From: a virus
Length of the DNA: 64,000 bases
Reading direction: 5' to 3' (one strand)
Virus record (IMG/VR): IMGVR_UViG_3300037247_001096
Span: 9,134-73,133 of that record
The notes under the pieces are model-generated. The model was not told where the DNA came from. It searched no databases and saw nothing but the letters and a program-made list of their open reading frames with translations. This document shows positions 5,635 through 42,682 of the stretch, piece by piece. Within the stretch, counting starts at the first letter, position 1. Every line of letters starts with the position of its first letter. Both the position numbers and the translations under genes were made by a program.

Positions 5635-5813
5635 TACCGTAAACTCCTTACAACACGCATCCGCTTCCGGCCGGCCTTTCGCTGATCGGCAAGCTGTGCA
5701 CTAACGGAGCGAGGCGGCGGCGCCTTCGTGGGCGTCTCCAGTTCCTGCTTCGTGAACTTCCTCCCGAACAGTTGCTCGACGAGACGGTCTGCGCGTTCTG
5801 TTGGCGTGGCCAC
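5634..5813 (-). CDS. Small basic protein (59 aa)
   Basis: The GTG start overlaps the portal stop (TAGTG). Reads MATPTERADRLVEQLFGRKF...; its stop overlaps the next ATG. Confidence 0.6.
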   Translation of the reverse strand: MATPTERADRLVEQLFGRKFTKQELETPTKAPPPRSVSAQLADQRKAGRKRMRVVRSLR

Positions 5814-7801
5814 TAGACCCCCACCCGCTGACCTGCGGCACCCGCAGCTTCGGCCCCTTCGGGCAAATTACGCTCCGTCCCGGTTCTTGCTGTACTCAAG
5901 GCTAAGGGGCCGGCCTCAGGCCCGGGAACCTGGAAGCCTTCACGTGAGGGAGTGGAACCTGTAATCTGGCGAATCTTCGCTTCTTCTATGAACTTCTGGG
6001 CGAACTCCTGCTGGCGAATGCGGGCCGCCATCTCCATCTCGCCGTGGCGCTCCAGGGCCATTGCCATTTGCTCCAGGATGATAACAGGGTCTTGTGTAGC
6101 CAAGTCCTCCCAGATACGGTCGGCCTCGGCCATTGGGTCGTCCACCTGGATGATGTCCTCTAGGACGGTCATCAACGACAGCATCGGCCGGCGCGGGTCG
6201 AGCGCCATACGTGCGGCCGTCATGCGGACGGTCAGGTCGTCCGGCAGGGCCGGCTTCAGCACCGGAACCGGCCGATAGTGGCGGCCTGCATCCAGTTCGG
6301 TCATCGGGTCAAACTCAATGTTGAACCACGTCTTCTTCGGTGTGGCGGCCTGGAGCTCGAACTTCCCGATGATGGGCGCCGCTTTCTGAAGCTGTGCCAG
6401 GATGCACGTTCCCATTCGCGTCCCGAATTGCTCGGGGCCGCTCTGGTAGGGCGCCAGTGAGCTCAGGGCCGCATTCGTGATCTGTTGAAGGAGGACGCCA
6501 CTCGCCAAGTTGGGCGTCACCGCCTGGAGCACGTTGGACAGAATACCCTTCTGCCGCTCCTCCTGAAGGAGTTGCACCAACCGGTAGGCGTCCTGGGTGA
6601 TGGGCTGTGGACGGAGCGTATCCACCGATTCTTGTGGCGTCAGCACAACATGCGCCCCAATACCCCGTTCAAACTCCGGCATCTCGCCAGTGGGGGTCTT
6701 GAAGACCAGCGTGTCATAAACATTGAGGGTGAAGTGCTGGAAGATGGTGGCGATAATTTCATTATACTGAGGCACCTGATCCTCAACCGAACTCAGGATA
6801 CCGCGCCCCATTTCCGCCACTCCAGATGCAGCGCCGTGCCAGGCAAGCGAATCCATCGCCAGCAAGTCGGCCCGTTCCTGGAGGCGCTGCTCCAGCGGCG
6901 AGCGCACAGCGGGCTTATGCAGAACGTGCGCCCCATTCACCGGCACGCCTACTACCGGGAGCTCGTCATAGGTGTAGCCATGGAAAAACGGCGGGACGAG
7001 CCAGCGGGCATCCTTACCCATCGTGTCTCCTATCGCCATGCCCATGAAGCCACCGGTCGCTACAGGGGCGCCCACCGTACCGAGCACCGCTACGATTCCT
7101 TTCCGGTTGCCCCGGTCGTTGCTCCAGTACTCCAGCTTCATGGCGGGCGTATTTGGGTCAAAGTTGGACTTGTCCATTAAATCCTGGTAGACCTCGGGGT
7201 AACTTGCCACCAGAGCGCCCAGAGTTGTTTCTTTCTCGATGAGTACGTGGTTCAGTCCCCACTCGTCGACGTGAGGGTAGACATCACGGGCATCATAGAT
7301 TTCGGCGATGAGCGGCGAGCGCCGGTACTTGAGCGCCTCTGTGGTGACGTGGAACTTACCCCAAATCATACCCCGGTGGAGGCCCTGATAGACAACCTGA
7401 GTCCAGAGGGGTGCCCGGAGGCGCATCCCGAAGAGCTCGTCCATATCGTAGACCAGACCCTCCAGAGTGCGCTCGACACGCCCTACCCGGCGCCGCATTT
7501 CCTGGTTCTCGTCCTCGGCACCCCTAAGGGGGATGCGCCACATGGTCGGGTTGCGCGTAAGGATGGCCAGAGCTGCGTCAACTCCAGTACGGGGCTCGTT
7601 CGATACGAAGCGCCGGGCCACGCCCAAAGGCTTCGACTGCTGCAAAACATCCAAAAGTAGGTACATCTGCTCCCAGTAGTCCTGCCTGAGCGAAAGCGGC
7701 CGCCAATACTGCTTGAGCTGATGCTGCCTCGTCAAGAGGTCAGTCTTCAACTTCGCCAGCATATCCTCGCCACGGACTAGGGCTGTTACAGGAAGTGCCA
7801 T
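5813..7801 (-). CDS. Portal (head-tail connector) protein
   Basis: 662 aa, directly after TerL, with a helical N-terminus, a 'DARDVYP' clip-like segment and a low-complexity C-terminus. The call rests mainly on synteny and size. Confidence 0.8.
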   Translation of the reverse strand: MALPVTALVRGEDMLAKLKTDLLTRQHQLKQYWRPLSLRQDYWEQMYLLLDVLQQSKPLGVARRFVSNEPRTGVDAALAILTRNPTMWRIPLRGAEDENQEMRRRVGRVERTLEGLVYDMDELFGMRLRAPLWTQVVYQGLHRGMIWGKFHVTTEALKYRRSPLIAEIYDARDVYPHVDEWGLNHVLIEKETTLGALVASYPEVYQDLMDKSNFDPNTPAMKLEYWSNDRGNRKGIVAVLGTVGAPVATGGFMGMAIGDTMGKDARWLVPPFFHGYTYDELPVVGVPVNGAHVLHKPAVRSPLEQRLQERADLLAMDSLAWHGAASGVAEMGRGILSSVEDQVPQYNEIIATIFQHFTLNVYDTLVFKTPTGEMPEFERGIGAHVVLTPQESVDTLRPQPITQDAYRLVQLLQEERQKGILSNVLQAVTPNLASGVLLQQITNAALSSLAPYQSGPEQFGTRMGTCILAQLQKAAPIIGKFELQAATPKKTWFNIEFDPMTELDAGRHYRPVPVLKPALPDDLTVRMTAARMALDPRRPMLSLMTVLEDIIQVDDPMAEADRIWEDLATQDPVIILEQMAMALERHGEMEMAARIRQQEFAQKFIEEAKIRQITGSTPSREGFQVPGPEAGPLALSTARTGTERNLPEGAEAAGAAGQRVGV

Positions 7802-7804
7802 GTG

Positions 7805-7966
7805 TTACTGAATCCCCAACTCCTGCTTGACTTCTTCCCACGGCGTGACCTTAGAACCCCCGGCTCTCCACTCAGCTAGGGACTTCCGCACCCCCGCCAT
7901 GAACTCTTCATCCGCAAGTACTCTCTTGCGGAGCTCCTCTTTCTGTTGGTGGGTCAGCTCTTTCAC
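7805..7966 (-). CDS. Small antitoxin-like protein (53 aa)
   Basis: AAGGAGGT RBS before GTG 7966. The C-terminus 'VRKSLAEWRAGGSKVTPWEEVKQELGI' resembles the tails of type II antitoxins. Confidence 0.5.
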   Translation of the reverse strand: MKELTHQQKEELRKRVLADEEFMAGVRKSLAEWRAGGSKVTPWEEVKQELGIQ

Positions 7967-7979
7967 CTTCTTACCTCCT

Positions 7980-9761
7980 TTAACGTAACCACGGACGCGG
8001 CCGTGCTCCCGCAAGGCTACGGTCTAGCACCTGGCCAAATCGCCCAACTGTGACCACTTCATTCTCACGAATAGGCCCCCCTGTCGAGACCCGCTGCTTT
8101 GCAGTATACCGCGCCCGTGCCTGATCCGCAATGTAGCAGAGCCCGGCGTAGCACATCACAATGTCATCCTTCTGACCCTTCCCCGCTTCCTTCAGGCCGT
8201 GGCGTTTCTGCGCCACTTTTTGCCAGGTGAACGCACCCATCTGCTGTACTCCCCAAGCGTCAGAGGTGTGGAAGGTGCCGGCGAAGACATGCTCGCGGAG
8301 AGCCGTCAGAATGTGCTGGCGAATCTGAGTAGGGTGCCCCCACGGGTCGAGAATGGGTGTCTTGATACTCATAGACTTCCCGGGCTCCAAGAAGAACCAT
8401 AGATTACGGTAGCCAATTTCCTGTACTTTCGCCACACAGACCGAGCCGAAGGCGTCTCGCTCACCACCCAGCAGGGCGTTGTTATAGAACTTGGCGATGG
8501 CCACCGCCATCGGCGCGAGCTCCTGGGGCGCCACCTTTATCGCCAGCCGCGCGGCGACGAACATCTCCGCCGCATCCAACACGACGATAGTGGAGTAGTC
8601 TGAAGCCTCATCCAGGCCGCCGCCGGCGCAGTCCACCCAGACAGCATACGGCCGGCCCATCTGAGGGCGCTGCCAGACATGCAGATGGGGCATCGGGAAC
8701 ACCACGGAGGAGCCTGGCAGTTGGGTGACGATTTCTTTAGGCGGGCTCACTGTGTTGCGGAACTTGTCCAGATGGTTGATGCCGTCCTGAGATGCGAAGT
8801 AGTTTCCTCCCGCCATAAGAAAACACCCCTCCAACGTCTCGACATACTCCTGGAGGAAGGGCGCATCGGTCTTGTCCTGCTCCGCCTTCCTAACCCGGCG
8901 CCAGATAATCTTCCCCACGTCTAACTCGTACTCCGCCATGAGGCGCTCTTCTTCATCCGTTGGAGTAAATGTACGGAGGAGGTGCTCCCACTCGTCCTCC
9001 GAGTAAGGAACGTCGCAGCCGGGCGTAGTCCCGGCACGGTAGCGAGGCTCCATCCACCAGGAGTAGAAGTGAGTAGTCCAGCGAGACATCGGGTCGTATG
9101 TCTTCGAGTCCGACACCATCTGATAGAACGTACCCTCTGCCCCATTAGGAGTCGACTCGATGTCGAACCAGCCATAAGGCGGGCCGGGCACGGACGGTGT
9201 GATACCCCCGATGAGGACATTTGCCCGCTCTAGGGGCCAGTGAGCAAATTCTGACAAATGACACAGGTGTGCGCTGTAGGCTCTACCAGCAGTCCGCTCC
9301 TCACCAGAGCCCCATATCCACCGGCACTCGTTGTCTTCAAGAACCAGCTCGCTGTCGTTATCCAGACCAACCTTAAACTCCCAGCCCTGCTGCTTTAGGT
9401 CACGGAGGTGGTGCCGCACCCGAGCACGGAACGTGTTGGTCGTCTGGTCGTCCTGGGTCATCGTTAGGCACTTCAGGCCGGCGCCCGTCACCATCCGCCG
9501 CACGTTCTTAGCCAGGATAAACGAAGAGGCCCGTGTCTGGCGGCCCTTGACCGTTAAGTCGCGGCCCGTCTTGTTGTGGGCCATCGCCCGTTGCTGGGGG
9601 AAGAGTTTGAAGGGGACGACCTGTCCCTGCTCATTGTCGATTGTGAGCAGCGACTCTATCCAATCGATCTCGTCTTGGGGGTCTGTACCAAAGAAGAGAC
9701 GAGCCGTCTCCGAGTCAAATTCACCATAGTCGATACGCTCACGCGCTGTGGGAGTGGCCAT
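7980..9761 (-). CDS. terL: Terminase large subunit
   Basis: Q-motif LFPQQ, Walker A variant KGRQTRASS, Walker B LCHLSEFAHW, coupling motif IESTPNG, and RNase H nuclease motifs VWVDCAGG...DYS...KDDIVM. Confidence 0.93.
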   Translation of the reverse strand: MATPTARERIDYGEFDSETARLFFGTDPQDEIDWIESLLTIDNEQGQVVPFKLFPQQRAMAHNKTGRDLTVKGRQTRASSFILAKNVRRMVTGAGLKCLTMTQDDQTTNTFRARVRHHLRDLKQQGWEFKVGLDNDSELVLEDNECRWIWGSGEERTAGRAYSAHLCHLSEFAHWPLERANVLIGGITPSVPGPPYGWFDIESTPNGAEGTFYQMVSDSKTYDPMSRWTTHFYSWWMEPRYRAGTTPGCDVPYSEDEWEHLLRTFTPTDEEERLMAEYELDVGKIIWRRVRKAEQDKTDAPFLQEYVETLEGCFLMAGGNYFASQDGINHLDKFRNTVSPPKEIVTQLPGSSVVFPMPHLHVWQRPQMGRPYAVWVDCAGGGLDEASDYSTIVVLDAAEMFVAARLAIKVAPQELAPMAVAIAKFYNNALLGGERDAFGSVCVAKVQEIGYRNLWFFLEPGKSMSIKTPILDPWGHPTQIRQHILTALREHVFAGTFHTSDAWGVQQMGAFTWQKVAQKRHGLKEAGKGQKDDIVMCYAGLCYIADQARARYTAKQRVSTGGPIRENEVVTVGRFGQVLDRSLAGARPRPWLR

Positions 9762-13801: not shown

Positions 13802-14371
13802 CTAGAAGTCTATACGGCCCTTGAGCCGGCGGCCGAGCCTCCTCATTTTCTCTCGGGCTTGGCGCTGCTGGGCCGGACGGCCCGTCTGCGCGACCTTTTT
13901 CAAGTGGGGGGTCTGGAATCCTGGTTCTGGGCCGGACGGCCCCCCTCCTGGCCCACGTGTCTCCATACGCCAACGTGTCTCCTTACGCAGCGCCCTTTGT
14001 ACTCGGCGTTCGACGGGCTCCTTCTGTACCCGCACAGCCTGTTGCACCTGCAAACGTGTCAGACCCCCCAGCATAGCCCCCGTCGTCCGCAGCGCCGGAT
14101 GGCCGGCACCAAGGTGGTGGGCCACCTCGTGACGGGCAGTGCCTCTTATCTCACTTGGAAGTACCAGGCGCCCCTCCTTAGTAGTAGCGAAAGTGATACT
14201 GGGGTGCGTAGAAAGAGCTATGTACCCCGGCGTCTGCTTCAGGGTAGGCCGTGTAACTGTCCCCGGCCTCTGGCGGGCCGGGAGCTCACTCAGTGCCTTG
14301 CGAGTCGCCTTCTGCGCCATGCGAACAGACTGTCGACGGGCTATTGCACGAAGTCGTTTAGCGTCAGCCAT
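13802..14371 (-). CDS. Highly basic protein with a metzincin-type HExxHxxGxxH motif
   Basis: HEVAHHLGAGH, with an AGGAG RBS. Confidence 0.65.
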   Translation of the reverse strand: MADAKRLRAIARRQSVRMAQKATRKALSELPARQRPGTVTRPTLKQTPGYIALSTHPSITFATTKEGRLVLPSEIRGTARHEVAHHLGAGHPALRTTGAMLGGLTRLQVQQAVRVQKEPVERRVQRALRKETRWRMETRGPGGGPSGPEPGFQTPHLKKVAQTGRPAQQRQAREKMRRLGRRLKGRIDF

Positions 14372-14378
14372 CTTACTC

Positions 14379-14567
14379 CTATTCTACCGCAACCGGCTCC
14401 GGCACGTCAACGGCCGAGCACTGATCGCAGCGGGCCTCTACTGCCTCCAGCTCCTCATCAAGCTGAGTATGGACTAACCCCGTCTGACAGGTCTCGCAGG
14501 ACACCGGAGGGACGACACAGGCGTCGCACTCAGCATTGCCCTCTTCGTGGTAATCGAACCAATTCAT
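14379..14567 (-). CDS. Small acidic zinc-finger protein
   Basis: Three CxxC pairs. Promoter TTGCGC-18-TATAGT lies at 14606..14577. Confidence 0.6.
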   Translation of the reverse strand: MNWFDYHEEGNAECDACVVPPVSCETCQTGLVHTQLDEELEAVEARCDQCSAVDVPEPVAVE

Positions 14568-14588
14568 CGCATCCACACTATAACAACA

Positions 14589-14890
14589 GTGGGAGGACTT
14601 GCGCAAGTCCTCCCACGTTAGCCTAGGGTTGCCCGTCGACCACACCTAGGGGGGCGAGCCGGCTTGTCCCGGGGAAGCTACCGCCCGGGGTTTTAGTCGG
14701 GGGCTCAATCACCGACCGCCGGCGCATCCTTGCCAACAGAAACCCGTAGGCCCCTGTCGACCTACCGTGGCTTACGCGACGGTAGGGGGGCGCATAGCCC
14801 CGGCAATGCAGCTCCGCTACATGCCGGGGAAGAACACATGGAGGCGGTGCTCGCCGGCTAGCTACTCCGGGTCAACGCACCACTCCTCCA
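14589..14890 (-). ncRNA. Candidate ~300-nt structured noncoding RNA
   Basis: Six consecutive hairpins or junctions with G-U pairs on the minus strand and a GUAA tetraloop. There is a promoter immediately upstream and a terminal hairpin followed by UGUUGUU. Confidence 0.6.
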
Positions 14891-14895
14891 CCTTC

Positions 14896-14936
14896 ACTAT
14901 ATCGGGTTGACATCGCCGGCGCAAGTCCCTTACACT
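14896..14936. promoter_or_regulatory. Overlapping divergent promoters
   Basis: Plus strand: TTGACA(14907)-18-TACACT(14931). Minus strand: TTGCGC(14924)-17-TATAGT(14901). Confidence 0.7.
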
Positions 14937-14953
14937 AAGAAAGGAGGTACATC

Positions 14954-15142
14954 GTGAGCATCCAGACCTATCACTGCGACCACTGTAACGCCGACTTCGT
15001 GAAAAGCGTTCCTGTTAATGAAGACGTGCCTAAGAGCGCACTATGCCCCAAGGGACACCCGAGCTCCTGGAAGCCCCCCACTGGCGTCCACTTCACCGTA
15101 GAGGGTGGCACCGGCGCCGCCAAAGGAGGAAGAGACCGATGA
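14954..15142 (+). CDS. FmdB-like zinc-ribbon protein
   Basis: TYHCDHC...CPKGH...F pattern with an AAGGAGGT RBS. Confidence 0.7.
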   Translation: MSIQTYHCDHCNADFVKSVPVNEDVPKSALCPKGHPSSWKPPTGVHFTVEGGTGAAKGGRDR

Positions 15143-16091
15143 ACAAGCTCCTATTCTGCCCTCACTGCATGGTCGAGCTTACACCCGTACTAACGGCACC
15201 CCAGATGGAATGCCCCTCGTGTGGCACTTGCTACCCACCTTACCAGTGTGGTTCGAGCAACATGCCCGGTGCCCGTTGCCAGCTCCCAGGGCGGCACCTG
15301 GGGACACATATCTGGGACAAGCTAGGAGGAAGAGACCGATGAATAACACTCGGTACAGCGAGGAAATCCCCGGTAGTCGTGGCAACTACGATTGGGGGGT
15401 GCGATTTGACCGCCACAACGGATACCTAGGCATCAACCAGTGGAATGACGAGGGCCTAGAGCGCATCCTCCTATCGCCAAAGCAGGTGAAGGCCCTCCTG
15501 GAGTTCATAGGGGCGGAGAAGGCGAGGGCACCCACAGCGTGCTACTGCTGCCGCGATGAGTGCACCTATGATGGATGCCTCTGTGAGCTACACGCGGGGA
15601 GAGCAGTAGAAGATGAGTAGACACCCCTGGAGAGAATGGTACTGGCGCGACCGTGTGCGGGGGTTCGCCCCCACCCCCTTCGCCCGAAAAAGCCCCCGCA
15701 AAACCGACAGGAGCGTCGTCGTCTACTTCGACGCGGAACTTGCCTACCGCCTCTTCGGAGGTGACCTCATGGCCGAAGGCAATTGGGCGCCCGGAGGTAG
15801 AGTAACACCAAGGAGCCTATACCGATGAGAACACATAAAGACTGCGATCACGGGCCGGGAGCGGCCTGGGTGCTAGACCCCACACGCCAGTGGTTCACCC
15901 GCTGCGACGCCTGTAACCGCTTCAGGCTCTGGGGGGACTACTTCGAGGTGTACGATTGGGAACCCGCAACCTGCGGGTGGTGGGAATGCGAGCAGTGCCT
16001 ACTCAAGACCGTTACGGCCTGGGGAGAGAAGCAAGCCGAGCTCGCTCCACGGCAGGTGACCGGCTTCACCACGGGCCCCGAAGGGTTTTAA
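15139..16091 (+). CDS. Four translationally coupled small hypothetical genes (15139..15342, 15339..15620, 15613..15828, 15825..16091), mostly Cys-rich
   Basis: Start/stop overlaps (mostly ATGA), RBSs and CxxC motifs. Confidence 0.65.
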
Positions 16092-16365: not shown

Positions 16366-16476
16366 GTAGCCTACAACCCATTAGCATAAACCCTAGGTGA
16401 CACACAACGGGTTTACGGGCCTAGCGCCATGAATAACCCCTGTCACTCACAACCCATTGTAACCTACAGGGGGTTT
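16366..16476. repeat. Iteron-like repeat cluster A (TGTA[A/G]CCTACA / ACAACCCATT / AATAACCCCTGT)
   Basis: The same words recur at 26265..26523. Lies in an ~530-bp noncoding region with a C/A-skewed tract. Confidence 0.65.
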
Positions 16477-26264: not shown

Positions 26265-26523
26265 AAAACCCCTGTGGGGCACCGTATAATTTTGGGGGGT
26301 AAAGCGGGTTACTAAATGGGTTGTAACCTACAACCCATTGTAACCTACAACGGGTTTCGTACTGGGATAAGGTCAATAACCCCTGTAGCCTACAACGGGT
26401 TGTAGGCTACTCGTTACAGTGATGGGATGGATAGAAGTAGAGGGTAAACCAGGTAATTTAGGCTATTCTGGGCACTCTACCGCAACACTTCAGCCCGTAA
26501 TACGTTGTAGCCTACAGGGGTTT
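26265..26523. repeat. Iteron-like repeat cluster B, candidate replication origin
   Basis: TGTA[A/G]CCTACA at 26322, 26339, 26384 and 26506, with an inverted copy at 26401. Palindrome at 26315..26339. Bounded by inverted AAACCCCTGT/ACAGGGGTTT. Confidence 0.7.
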
Positions 26524-40021: not shown

Positions 40022-42682
40022 ATGACGGCGCCTAGAGACTGTAACCGCTGCCCTCAGTTAGCTCGGGTAAGGTCGTGTGTGGTTAACGGTTCCGGCCCGA
40101 CTGAGGCCAGAATCGCAATGGTCGGCGAAGGCCCGGGTAATTACGAAGACCAGAAGAGGAGGCCCTTCGTAGGGAAGGCCGGCCGGGTACTGCGCACCAT
40201 CGAGTGGGCTGCTGGTATCAACCAACACCTAGTCTACTACACCAACGCCACACGCTGTTGGGGTAAGCGAAACCCGAAGCCGGCGGAGGTGGACGCCTGC
40301 CACCATTTCCTCATTGAAGAGCTGCGGGAACTCAACCCCTCGGTCATTGTGGCGCTTGGCGGCGCCGCTCTCCGTTCCCTCTACCGCCCCGGCGTAACCG
40401 TTGGCTCGGTGATGGGCTTCACCCTATACAACGACGAGCTCCCTGGCATCCCCGTCATCCCAACCTACCACCCCTCATACATCATGCGCGGGCATTGGGA
40501 TGAGGTGGCGTTGGTACTGGCTCACTTCCGCAAGGCAAAGCGCATCGCCGAGGAAGGGGGTATCGAAGAGAAGCTGGGATCGTACATGGGTATCACCACA
40601 CTAGAGGAGCTGCGGGCGCTCCGAGATTACCTACTTTCTGATGCCGTTTCTATACTGGCCCTAGATACTGAGACTTGCGGTTTATCGTGGATGGACTCCG
40701 AACTCCTCTGCATCAGCTTCTCGGGTGAGGAGGGAGTCGGGTATAGCGTCCCCATCCTCCACCGGGGCGAGCGCACCGTCATGAAGACGAAGGGGCGGGG
40801 CAAGAACCGTAGGGAAGTGCCCGAACAGGAGTGGTGGCCTGTCCCCTACTGGGACTTGGAGAAGGAGATGCCCGAGGTGATCAGTATCCTCGACGAAATC
40901 CTCCGCTCCGACAAACCCAAGGCGGGTCAGAACATCGGGTTTGATTTGAGAATGTTGGAGCGCCGGCCTGATGAGGCGGTGGTGACGGCCCAGACTGCAC
41001 TCGGCTTCTACGTTAACAACGTACAGCACGACACCAAAATGCTGAGCTCACTACTGTCTGAGGTGAGCCCGGCCAACTTGACGGTGCTCACAGCCTACCA
41101 TACGGATATGCCCTATTACGAGGCTGAGATTTCCGGGATGAAATCCAAGATGTGGCACGTCCCTGACAAGGAATTATGGGAATACGGAGGAGCCGATGTC
41201 GATGTCGTGCAGCGGCTGGTGCCCCGGCTCTACCCCCAGGTGCAGGCTGAAAAGTCGGACTGGGTGTACGAAAACATCAGCATCCCCCTCATCCGCTGCG
41301 CCACGAAGCTAGAGGAGCGGGGCGTCTACATCGACCAGGAGTATTTCGATAAGCTCTGCTTGTACTACAAGGACGACCTGGCGAGGAAGAAGGCGGAGCT
41401 AAATGAGACGGTTGGGCGTGAGGTGAAGCATCCTAGCCACTACCAGCACGTACAGAAACTCGTCTTCAAAGACCTGGGCCTGCCCCTCACCGCCCAGCCC
41501 ACCGATGGCGCCCGCAAGGAGTGTGACAAGTGTCGGAAGACGCAAAGTCCCTGCTCACCGGCCCATGCCTCAACATCGGCCGACGCCTTGGCGGAGTTGA
41601 ACGAGCGGGCACCCCACCCGGTGCTACCTCTCCTCGTTGACATTCGCCACGTCGAGAAGTTCGGTAGTACCTACTTAGATGGGGGTGAGGGGGGTGGGTT
41701 CCGTGTTCATATTCGGGCAGACAGCCGCATTCACGGTCGCTGGACTGCCGGAGGCGCTCGGGCAACAGGGCGCTTTACTTGCGAGGAACCCGCCCTTATG
41801 ACTCTACCCAAGGAAATTAGGATTCATTCGGACGAGTATGACATCCACTCTGACGATGCCATTCGCGCCATGTGCGCTGCTCCTCCAGGATACGGGGTAC
41901 TCAACGCTGACTGGGGCCAGGCCGAGGTTTGGGTCATGGCCTACGAGACGGGAGATGAGACCCTCCTCAAGTTGCTGATAGATGGAACGGACATCCACGC
42001 CTACGTTGCCCGGGAGCTCTGCAAGTTGGGGGTCTCTACTAGGTTCCCCCATGAATCCGTGGATGACACGCTCTCCCTAGAGGAGTGGAGGAGCAAGTAC
42101 AAGGAAGTGCGTGACAGGGGCAAGACCTTTGTGTTCGGGATGAACTATGGCCTAACCGACGAAGGAGCTGGCCAGCGCCTAGGCTGCTCGGCAGAGGAGG
42201 CGTCGCCACTCCTGTCACACTACATCCAGAGTATCTTTCCTTCGATGGGATCATACTTCATTCGGATTCGTGAAGAGATGTTCCAGCGAGGGTCGGTCGC
42301 TGACCGCTTTGGGCGCCGGCGGCACTTCGCCGAGGTGCCCATCCTAGCGGCGCTGCGCTACCGGGGAGACCTGGAGGGGGCCATCCGCCAGGGGTACAAC
42401 ATGCCCATCCAGGGCGGGGCACACGACCTTCACTCCCTGGCGCACATCGCCACTGAGAGGGAGCTGTCGTCGTTCGTCCAGCCCGTAATTGAGATGCACG
42501 ACTCCCTTGCCATGTACGCCCCTCTAGACCGACTCGAAGAGGGTGGGGCTGCTATCAAGGAGCTGTGGGGCCACGTGGCCCGAGATACCATCCTACCCTC
42601 CGGTGAGCGGCTTGCTTGGGAGATTCCCGTCGAGATACAATGGGGTAGGAGCTTTGGAGAGCTGGAGGCGCACATTGAGTAA
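40022..42682 (+). CDS. polA: Family A DNA polymerase with an N-terminal family-4 uracil-DNA glycosylase domain (SPO1-like)
   Basis: UDG motifs GEGPG..ED..PFVG.AG and HPSY; exonuclease motifs DTET, NIGFD, YGGAD; polymerase motifs A DWGQAE, B R...KTFVFGMNYG and C MHDS. Confidence 0.95.
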   Translation: MTAPRDCNRCPQLARVRSCVVNGSGPTEARIAMVGEGPGNYEDQKRRPFVGKAGRVLRTIEWAAGINQHLVYYTNATRCWGKRNPKPAEVDACHHFLIEELRELNPSVIVALGGAALRSLYRPGVTVGSVMGFTLYNDELPGIPVIPTYHPSYIMRGHWDEVALVLAHFRKAKRIAEEGGIEEKLGSYMGITTLEELRALRDYLLSDAVSILALDTETCGLSWMDSELLCISFSGEEGVGYSVPILHRGERTVMKTKGRGKNRREVPEQEWWPVPYWDLEKEMPEVISILDEILRSDKPKAGQNIGFDLRMLERRPDEAVVTAQTALGFYVNNVQHDTKMLSSLLSEVSPANLTVLTAYHTDMPYYEAEISGMKSKMWHVPDKELWEYGGADVDVVQRLVPRLYPQVQAEKSDWVYENISIPLIRCATKLEERGVYIDQEYFDKLCLYYKDDLARKKAELNETVGREVKHPSHYQHVQKLVFKDLGLPLTAQPTDGARKECDKCRKTQSPCSPAHASTSADALAELNERAPHPVLPLLVDIRHVEKFGSTYLDGGEGGGFRVHIRADSRIHGRWTAGGARATGRFTCEEPALMTLPKEIRIHSDEYDIHSDDAIRAMCAAPPGYGVLNADWGQAEVWVMAYETGDETLLKLLIDGTDIHAYVARELCKLGVSTRFPHESVDDTLSLEEWRSKYKEVRDRGKTFVFGMNYGLTDEGAGQRLGCSAEEASPLLSHYIQSIFPSMGSYFIRIREEMFQRGSVADRFGRRRHFAEVPILAALRYRGDLEGAIRQGYNMPIQGGAHDLHSLAHIATERELSSFVQPVIEMHDSLAMYAPLDRLEEGGAAIKELWGHVARDTILPSGERLAWEIPVEIQWGRSFGELEAHIE

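Follow-up and report, generated by a model that had tools for sequence, protein, structure and literature searches.

The 73,133-base-pair (bp) IMG/VR virus record IMGVR_UViG_3300037247_001096, classed as complete, carries a structured RNA in a divergent intergenic region of ~380 bp between its late and replication genes. In the window analysed here (64,000 nucleotides (nt), bases 9134-73133 of the record), this RNA is encoded on the minus strand and very probably belongs to a real structured RNA family. Its best-conserved core, two hairpins termed modules A and B (A+B), is a putative copy of a ~65-nt cellular small RNA that lies beside a gene for an NYN-domain ribonuclease (RNase). The explanation favoured here, tentatively, is a separately transcribed, modular phage RNA whose core mimics the cellular RNA and serves as a decoy acting in trans. 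Action in trans, rather than as a leader, is fairly probable in its own right. That the RNA is directed at the NYN partner is a possibility put forward with more reserve.

A structured RNA with its own predicted promoter and terminator

The minus-strand stretch 14895..14577 has a minimum free energy (MFE) of -164.9 kcal/mol, compared with -137.5 +/- 6.4 kcal/mol for 100 dinucleotide shuffles (z -4.30). None of the 100 folded as well, and the comparison suggested in the initial annotation of this DNA thus came out in favour of the RNA. The plus strand also exceeded its shuffles (z -3.85). When the 73-kb genome was folded in 455 windows of 320 nt and the energies were regressed on GC content, the stretch ranked first of 455 on the minus strand (z -3.46) and lay outside the ten best plus-strand windows, which supports the strand originally assigned. 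The region has no open reading frame (ORF) of its own of at least 50 amino acids (aa).

A minus-strand sigma-70-like promoter (P1), previously described as TTGCGC-17-TATAGT with a +1 at about 14889, was located at 14924..14896, and the terminator likewise proposed was recovered by a terminator scan as a 12-bp hairpin (14616..14589) followed by UGUUGUU. The initial annotation overlooked a further copy of the promoter, P2. It is made by the loop of the final hairpin and the U-tract, and it precedes the late (structural) operon. P1 reads GGACTTGCGC-N17-TATAGTG and P2 GGACTTGCGC-N18-TATAGTG, with both elements in common. The terminator stem forms a 28-bp perfect palindrome (14616..14589) that overlaps P2, and its half-site GGACTTGCGC is repeated at P1. 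All promoter calls are consensus matches; sigma-70-like promoters lie upstream of every homologue described below.

The predicted fold contains most of the hairpins originally drawn, including hairpin 1 (14886..14840), the hairpin CCCCGGCA-UGUAGC/GCUGCA-UGCCGGGG (14829..14798), the three-way junction closed by GCCGGC/GCCGGC (14723..14658), the CCUAGG hairpin (14650..14622) and the final hairpin. One element was redrawn. The inner part of the GCCCC hairpin, CCUACCGU...ACGGUAGG with its GUAA loop (14786..14761), is retained as module A, whereas its outer GCCCC...GGGGC closure is unsupported. Instead, GGGGCC pairs locally with GGUUUC in an 11-bp hairpin (14759..14734), module B, which covaries in relatives.

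Rfam 15 at gathering thresholds returned no matches across the whole window, and a sensitive scan of 14300-15200 gave only chance-level microRNA and small-RNA matches far under threshold. There was likewise no relevant match in 13 homologous loci or in sensitive scans of the RNAs of two related phages (G001 and L042).

Compensatory changes in the paired regions

The strongest support for the fold comes from A+B. A hand-picked alignment of this core (14786..14734) comprises four phage and five cellular sequences and omits two weak, insertion-bearing matches (L089 and L085). Across its 21 pairs, 187 of 188 cells can pair, and nine of the 21 pairs change on both sides. None of 500 shuffles matched the observed pairing percentage or covariation score, and slid controls gave 38-53% pairing with 0-2 covarying pairs. 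An automatic alignment of matches to R1, a covariance model of A+B, included antisense and weak matches and was not used for these counts. The pattern used to locate six of the nine sequences specifies part of A's 3' half and part of B's 5' half, and the complementary halves lie outside it. The 14 chance matches to this pattern that lack the complementary halves therefore serve as a natural control.

Other modules show the same behaviour on a smaller scale. Modules A, B and C keep every one of their 24 pairs when the window is compared with G001; two of these pairs change on both sides and three on one side, and slid controls reach 35-52% pairing. In the outer helix of module E, one pair is A-U in two sequences and G-C in two, and an insertion in G001 that pairs lengthens the inner helix. 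In module D, GGC/GCC becomes AGC/GCU. The expectation of covariation was thus borne out, best in the A+B core. Together with homologues at the same site and the lack of an Rfam match, these compensatory changes uphold the initial description of an undescribed phage non-coding RNA heading the late arm.

A cellular counterpart beside an NYN gene

Among viral contigs, the pattern ACGGNNGGNNNACAGGNNCCTNCGGG matched only three phage records that were already known. In 185,579 species genomes (one genome each) it matched 16 times, twice with both full helices. Both full matches (L069 and L079) are in metagenome-assembled genomes (MAGs) titled 'uncultured Dehalococcoidia bacterium'. In each, a TTGACA-17-TACTAT or TAATAT promoter is followed after ~8 nt by hairpins A and B and a U-rich tail, and a gene on the opposite strand lies downstream. 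The cellular A+B is thus a stand-alone RNA gene of ~65 nt. R1 found further copies in three genomes (G126, G353 and G369) and a diverged one in another (G173), with a single copy per cellular genome and one A+B per phage RNA. The hosts are probably Dehalococcoidia (Chloroflexota), judging from this homology.

In all six cellular genomes, which are of the class Dehalococcoidia, the RNA is preceded by a TTGACA-17-TAnnAT promoter of its own and closes with hairpin B and a run of U's, and an NYN-domain gene lies ~60 nt away in divergent orientation. The gene matches Pfam PF01936 (E 2e-8) and PADLOC HEC-09 (E 6e-19) and has no NCBIfam match. The presence of the RNA tracks one NYN subfamily. In 401 class genomes, the RNA accompanies four of the six closest NYN homologues. 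The other two lie at contig ends, and for one of these two, half of module B begins another contig. More distant homologues (at most 38% identity) had the RNA in 0 of 23 loci. This tally includes an unpublished genome (G266), on which no claim depends. The downstream neighbours vary (mutM-, recO- and recG-like, as read from translations), so that the RNA and its NYN neighbour act like a compact unit of two parts.

Searches of six phage records (the window genome and five relatives, with three of the six complete) yielded no NYN gene. In a crude test, duplexes between the cellular RNA and the NYN messenger RNA (-50..+60) had energies no better than those of shuffles, of which 100, 72, 10, 58 and 38 of 200 were as good in the five loci. 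The lack of such pairing argues for protein binding over antisense control. Rfam has no family for the cellular RNA, and the L069 and L079 loci gave only chance matches elsewhere.

The RNAs of the window, G001 and G004 were each compared with the 401 class genomes by BLAST, a search of low sensitivity in which the window query missed one known genome (G007). Among the matches assessed, only A+B was real, and the other modules were not found with these queries. Nine of the 11 G001 matches were read and discarded as chance, most of them within apparent coding genes; the other two fell on A+B. The window query also gave two marginal matches.

Two further observations concern the cellular loci. 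A weaker A+B-like RNA (27.5 bits) occurs in a low-GC genome of the same class (G074, L085:1501-1579), with the helix CCAU/AUGG in place of the CCGU/ACGG seen elsewhere and a longer second hairpin; no NYN gene was detected within the 3 kb examined there. In G007, a small ORF past the NYN gene (L082:2238-2666) encodes, by eye from its translation, an FmdB-type zinc ribbon. The window protein at 14954-15142 has a weak match, below the cut-off, to PF09723 (E 1.5e-4), also an FmdB-type family. A zinc-ribbon neighbour in both settings is probably a coincidence.

Mosaic RNAs in related phages

A search with the neighbouring HExxH-motif protein returned one viral contig (L003) and 11 short metagenome contigs. 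Only L003 and L014 among these loci have a structured non-coding stretch before the Cys-rich gene. The idea that their RNAs can be aligned with that of the window was rejected, the similarity being no better than in shuffles (87, 121 and 119 of 200 as good). A UGAU..GAGCCCC three-way junction apparently common to the window and L003 was also rejected, as the segment pairs into a stem in one of them but forms a loop in the other. The portal-like protein found nine viral loci, and 30 with a profile.

Searches of whole records with the RNA region (blastn) matched G001 and G004 in part, at 86-88% identity, and also produced matches in G002, L042 and L059. The layout is the same in G001, G002, G004 and L042: a sigma-70-like promoter, a non-coding stretch of hairpins (170-380 nt), a terminator with a U-tract, a proximal promoter and the first late gene. 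The proximal promoter is of the TTGCGC or TTGACC-18-TATAGT type or has an extended -10, and P2-type examples were recognised by eye in G001, G002, G004, L042, L003 and L014. For L059, the reading covers the promoter and the hairpin modules.

Within this shared layout, the modules are distributed as a mosaic. A+B occurs in the window, G001, L042 and L059; C in the window, G001 and G002; and D in G001 and G002. Module E, the CUAACG linker and the terminator are found in the window, G001, G002 and G004. In these relatives, a hairpin followed by UGUU(G/C)UU is retained and its apical sequence varies. The closing helix of the three-way junction is retained in G001 and G002 as GCCGGU/GCCGGC, with an interior unlike that of the window, and a three-way junction is common to G001 and L003. 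A hairpin with the loop ACAGCCACGAAC is shared by G004 and L042, and what separates G001 from G002 is one 60-nt module, cleanly inserted or deleted. From this mosaic, RNA modules seem to pass between phages, with replacements, gains and losses, in an exchange that resembles that of accessory protein genes.

The RNA is also absent from some relatives. In G003, a complete genome with a portal 75% identical to the window's, and in L010/L011, a P1-type promoter stands ~45 nt before the first late gene and the RNA is missing there; R1 found no A+B anywhere in G003. With the promoter directly before the operon in these phages, the RNA is evidently dispensable, a cassette that lies between two copies of one promoter. 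On this comparative evidence, P1, the RNA and the terminator together make up a moron-like cassette.

In one DNA sequencing run (X1), contigs of related strains join 14783 to 15890 (depth 52) or diverge at 14719. Judged from these positions, some co-occurring relatives break inside the RNA cassette, which fits its mosaic nature. At the same divergent junction, L014 has an unalignable RNA of ~300 nt (L014:1995-2300) with its own and proximal promoters, a candidate CsrA-type sponge.

Proposed mechanism

Host RNA polymerase would start at P1 near 14889 and stop at 14589-14582, yielding a stable RNA of ~305 nt. The RNA would be made alongside the late genes, which would use their own promoter copy, P2. 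Its A+B core would bind whatever binds the cellular RNA, the sole candidate in sight being the NYN RNase. In the cell, the small RNA would restrain the NYN nuclease, as RNA antitoxins do, and the phage copy would keep the nuclease silent once host transcription fails. The remaining modules may bind other host factors or stabilise the RNA. The whole may be described as a carrier of exchangeable protein-binding modules, among which A+B is the best supported.

A bolder extension of this mechanism is considered unlikely. Here, the NYN RNase and its divergent ~65-nt RNA would form a new toxin-antitoxin or defence module with a non-repetitive, separately transcribed RNA, and the phage RNA would be a composite 'multi-decoy'. 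A+B would mimic the NYN partner RNA, while module C, H2 and the L014 variant would act as CsrA-type GGA hairpins. Phages would shuffle these modules among themselves as they do anti-defence genes that encode proteins, and a late-promoter copy would drive the modules' expression. Among the papers listed by the literature searches, no title or beginning of an abstract was found linking an NYN protein with a partner RNA or with a type III toxin-antitoxin.

Several points weigh against the trans-acting decoy. Adjacency is the only link that suggests binding between NYN protein and RNA, and homology of the A+B RNA is the whole basis for the host assignment. Promoter use, transcript ends and abundance are predictions from sequence. 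The alignments are small (4 to 9 sequences) and their members related, so that the shuffle counts are not to be taken as probabilities. A+B occurs in only four of eight RNA-bearing phage loci and therefore cannot account for the whole family. The pair also appears rare: with the centre genome counted each time, strong R1 matches occurred in 2 of 151 class, 1 of 18 family and 1 of 151 phylum genomes, these sets being samples and the MAGs incomplete. A decoy would accordingly help against some hosts only. HEC-09, the closest relative of the NYN gene to have a name, is reported to protect against no phage tested (bioRxiv 10.1101/2024.01.29.577857), which leaves 'defence' as a candidate label for the gene. 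Finally, the position of the RNA between a late promoter and the late operon may leave room for a role in cis.

Alternative explanations

The last of these points is the basis for an unlikely but serious alternative, a cis-acting leader of the late operon, in which RNA polymerase starting at P1 would enter the structured leader and terminate at the hairpin, except when rendered terminator-resistant by a phage factor or by the RNA. The RNA does lie on the same strand immediately upstream of the operon, with a late-type promoter before it and a terminator at its end, and relatives conserve this arrangement. However, a P2-type promoter follows the terminator in the window, G001, G002 and L042, which makes the late genes independent of read-through, and G003 and L010 carry the same operon behind the same promoter without the RNA. 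The shuffling of modules among phages and the stand-alone A+B of cells, with a convergent gene downstream, also fit a leader poorly. A CsrA/Rsm-type sponge, whose GGA-loop hairpins titrate host CsrA, is less probable again. CsrA binds the consensus CANGGANG. The site GCAAGGAUGC (14733..14724) fits it and recurs in G001, while G002 has two exact copies and one variant, and H2 has a GGA triloop. Across eight phage RNAs, GGA occupies 13 of 54 predicted loops, compared with 4.95 +/- 2.14 in shuffles, none of 60 reaching 13; in L014 it occupies six of eight (for example GGAC-GGAU-GUCC and GGGGCC-GGAU-GGCCCC), compared with 0.83 in shuffles. PF02599 also exceeded its cut-off in four of five genomes from the candidate host lineage, itself a probable assignment, and a CsrA gene was not found among the phage's genes. 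Yet the enrichment is carried by L014, G002 and the window, with none in G001, G004 or L042, and the window itself has GGA in only two of nine loops. The best-conserved, covarying core, A+B, has no GGA loop, and no Csr/Rsm family of Rfam matches.

It is very improbable that the region is a DNA-level element, whether an origin, a group of operators or a hot spot of recombination, or that hairpins and terminators have simply accumulated there without function. The divergent promoters, the palindrome over P2 with its half-site at P1, the stability of the plus-strand fold relative to shuffles and the contig breaks of related strains would suit such an element. It would explain neither the strand asymmetry of the genome-wide comparison nor the G-U pairs and G-U intermediates within covarying helices, and duplex DNA sites have no need of changes on both sides that keep helices intact. 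Homologues with promoters and terminators in phages and cells also speak for a transcript. The least credible alternative is the one raised by the initial annotation, an oligomerising or packaging RNA in which two unpaired GUCGAC sites form kissing dimers or rings, as in phi29 pRNA. The RNA heads the structural/packaging arm, and GUCGAC does occur twice. However, both sites are largely paired in the predicted fold: five of six bases of the first (14761..14756) lie within two covarying helices, and the second (14640..14635) is half paired, GUC with GGC. Neither palindrome is conserved, relatives having GUGGAC, GUGAAC or CUAAC for the first and GUCGAG or GUCGAU for the second, which removes the grounds for the proposed contact. 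With its family A polymerase, the phage is not phi29-like, and Rfam, whose families include pRNA, gives the RNA no match. Since the complete relative G003 has no RNA at this site and no A+B anywhere, the RNA is not an essential part of packaging.

Features and genomic context

Coordinates of the features of the RNA and its flanks, numbered from the first base of the window
Feature	Position	Strand	Basis or remarks
Late arm gene 1, 62-aa Cys-rich protein	14379..14567 (ATG 14567)	-	Conserved in relatives; context, outside the RNA
P2, second promoter copy, TTGCGC-18-TATAGT; -35 within terminator loop	14577..14606	-	Regex scan
Terminator-like 12-bp GC-rich stem (14616..14589) and UGUUGUU (14588..14582)	14582..14616	-	Terminator scan
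Predicted non-coding transcript, ~305 nt	14582..14889	-	Deduced from P1 and terminator
Linker CUAACG, invariant	14616..14621	-	Identical in 4/4 sequences
Module E hairpin, CCUAGG-U-GU-G-GUC-GACG-GGC-A-AC-CCUAGG	14622..14650	-	In window, G001, G002 and G004
Three-way junction, closing helix GCCGGC/GCCGGC	14658..14723	-	MFE fold
Module C mini-hairpin, GCA-AGGA-UGC	14724..14733	-	GCAAGGAUGCGCCGG common to G001; near copy in G002
Module B hairpin, CGACAGGGGCC-UACG-GGUUUCUGUUG	14734..14759	-	11 pairs, 5 change both sides; terminator in cellular RNAs and in phage L042
Module A hairpin, CCUACCGU-C-GC-GUAA-GC-C-ACGGUAGG	14761..14786	-	10 pairs, all kept, 4 change both sides; in 4 phage and at least 5 cellular sequences; R1 score of window copy 81.3 bits
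H2 hairpin, CCCCGGCAUGUAGC-GGA-GCUGCAUUGCCGGGG, GGA triloop	14798..14829	-	Predicted fold; phage-specific
H1 hairpin, GGAG-UGGUGC...GCACCG-CUCC	14840..14886	-	MFE fold; phage-specific, no homologue found in relatives
P1, sigma-70-like promoter, TTGCGC-17-TATAGT; predicted +1 ~14889	14896..14924	-	Regex scan of genome
Opposing promoter-like TTGACA-18-TACACT, replication arm	14907..14936	+	Overlaps P1
Plus arm gene 1, 62-aa zinc-ribbon protein	14954..15142	+	Context, outside the RNA

The minus arm to the left begins with the Cys-rich protein and a 189-aa HEVAHH protein, followed later by a 593-aa protein and a 662-aa portal-like protein. 'Portal-like' is a label given here; Pfam and PHROGs gave the 662-aa protein no name and matched next to nothing among the neighbouring late genes. 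To the right, the zinc-ribbon protein is followed by the replication genes for a UvsW-like helicase, DnaB, a Toprim primase, a RecA-like protein and the family A polymerase. The polymerase (window 40022-42682) carries an N-terminal domain of the uracil-DNA-glycosylase (UDG) superfamily within one 886-aa ORF. In a collection of isolated phages, neither 14300-15200 (blastn) nor the portal-like protein (tblastn) had a match, and polymerase relatives reached only ~23% identity. By these comparisons, the phage is remote from every isolated phage.

Gene order is evidently rearranged within the phage group. In L004, L005 and L008, the HExxH-motif gene lies between homologues of the 593-aa and 662-aa proteins rather than heading the arm (window 13802-14371 and 5813-9761), and in L003 homologues of plus-arm genes are co-directional with the late genes. 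The record has an exact direct terminal repeat of 127 bp, and the equivalent 127-bp repeat in G001 (L031:1-127 and the end of L032) cuts across the RNA's 3' module. Both repeats have the appearance of an overlap left by circular assembly, not of genuine genome ends.

Elsewhere in the genome, the 11-mer TGTAGGYTACA occurs four times within 200 bp at window 26322-26516 and once more at 16458-16468, five copies in all compared with 0.05 expected by chance. The copies build long inverted repeats in an intergenic stretch of 46-59% GC. On the plus strand, this stretch comes next in folding stability within the genome. The copies resemble iterons or operator sites, and the stretch is possibly an origin of replication.

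Comparison with known systems

Morons are independent promoter-gene-terminator cassettes that are present or absent between conserved genes. The RNA cassette is similar in having its own promoter and terminator and in being cleanly present or absent at the same junction in relatives. In contrast to morons, its cargo is a structured RNA rather than a protein gene, and it is framed by a duplicated late promoter.

A short terminated transcript between the late promoter and the late operon also recalls the late-leader arrangements of lambda (PR'-6S-tR') and HK022 (put RNAs). Here, however, P2 follows the terminator, so that the late genes are not reached solely by read-through, the RNA is dispensable in relatives and its core is free-standing in cells. 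Like the Csr/Rsm sponge RNAs CsrB and RsmY/Z, the RNA has multiple hairpins, some of them with GGA loops. Unlike them, it has few GGA sites, none of them in the core modules, and no sequence or model match. GOLLD and ROOL, which are large structured phage-associated RNAs, and phi29 pRNA, which oligomerises by kissing loops, resemble it as phage-encoded structured non-coding RNAs without coding potential. It differs from these in size and architecture, in matching no Rfam family and in having no conserved self-complementary loops, and unlike pRNA it is missing from a complete relative.

The closest parallel is a known kind of phage RNA mimic of a host RNA. A phage is reported to evade the ToxIN suicide system by RNA-based molecular mimicry (PMC3475682). 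Like this pseudo-ToxI of phage PhiTE, the RNA here is a phage non-coding RNA similar to a host RNA whose gene is paired with that of a ribonuclease, and in each case the phage has the RNA but not the nuclease. The host partners differ in form. The short repeats of ToxI form a tandem array that lies upstream of ToxN and is co-transcribed with it, whereas the cellular RNA here is a single two-hairpin unit divergent from the NYN (PIN-like) gene in six of six loci. Tandem direct repeats such as those of type III antitoxins (ToxI, CptI and TenpI) are not visible by eye in the sequences read, and the complementarity of type I antisense antitoxins was not seen in the five loci tested. For the NYN-RNA pair, toxicity, binding and defence are hypothetical.

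Should the pair prove to work in defence or as a toxin-antitoxin, the type would be new. The hypothesis bears on the role and control of HEC-09-like NYN genes, and on phage RNA mimicry beyond the single case of ToxI. The RNA adds a new, well-supported structured RNA family from phages whose host group, probably Dehalococcoidia, is poorly known and uncultivated, with its promoter, terminator and module map defined, and RNA homology offers a clue to the host for a phage group without cultured relatives. Set beside pseudo-ToxI, this phage RNA is distinguished as a composite of ~300 nt in which the putative mimic is joined to several extra modules.

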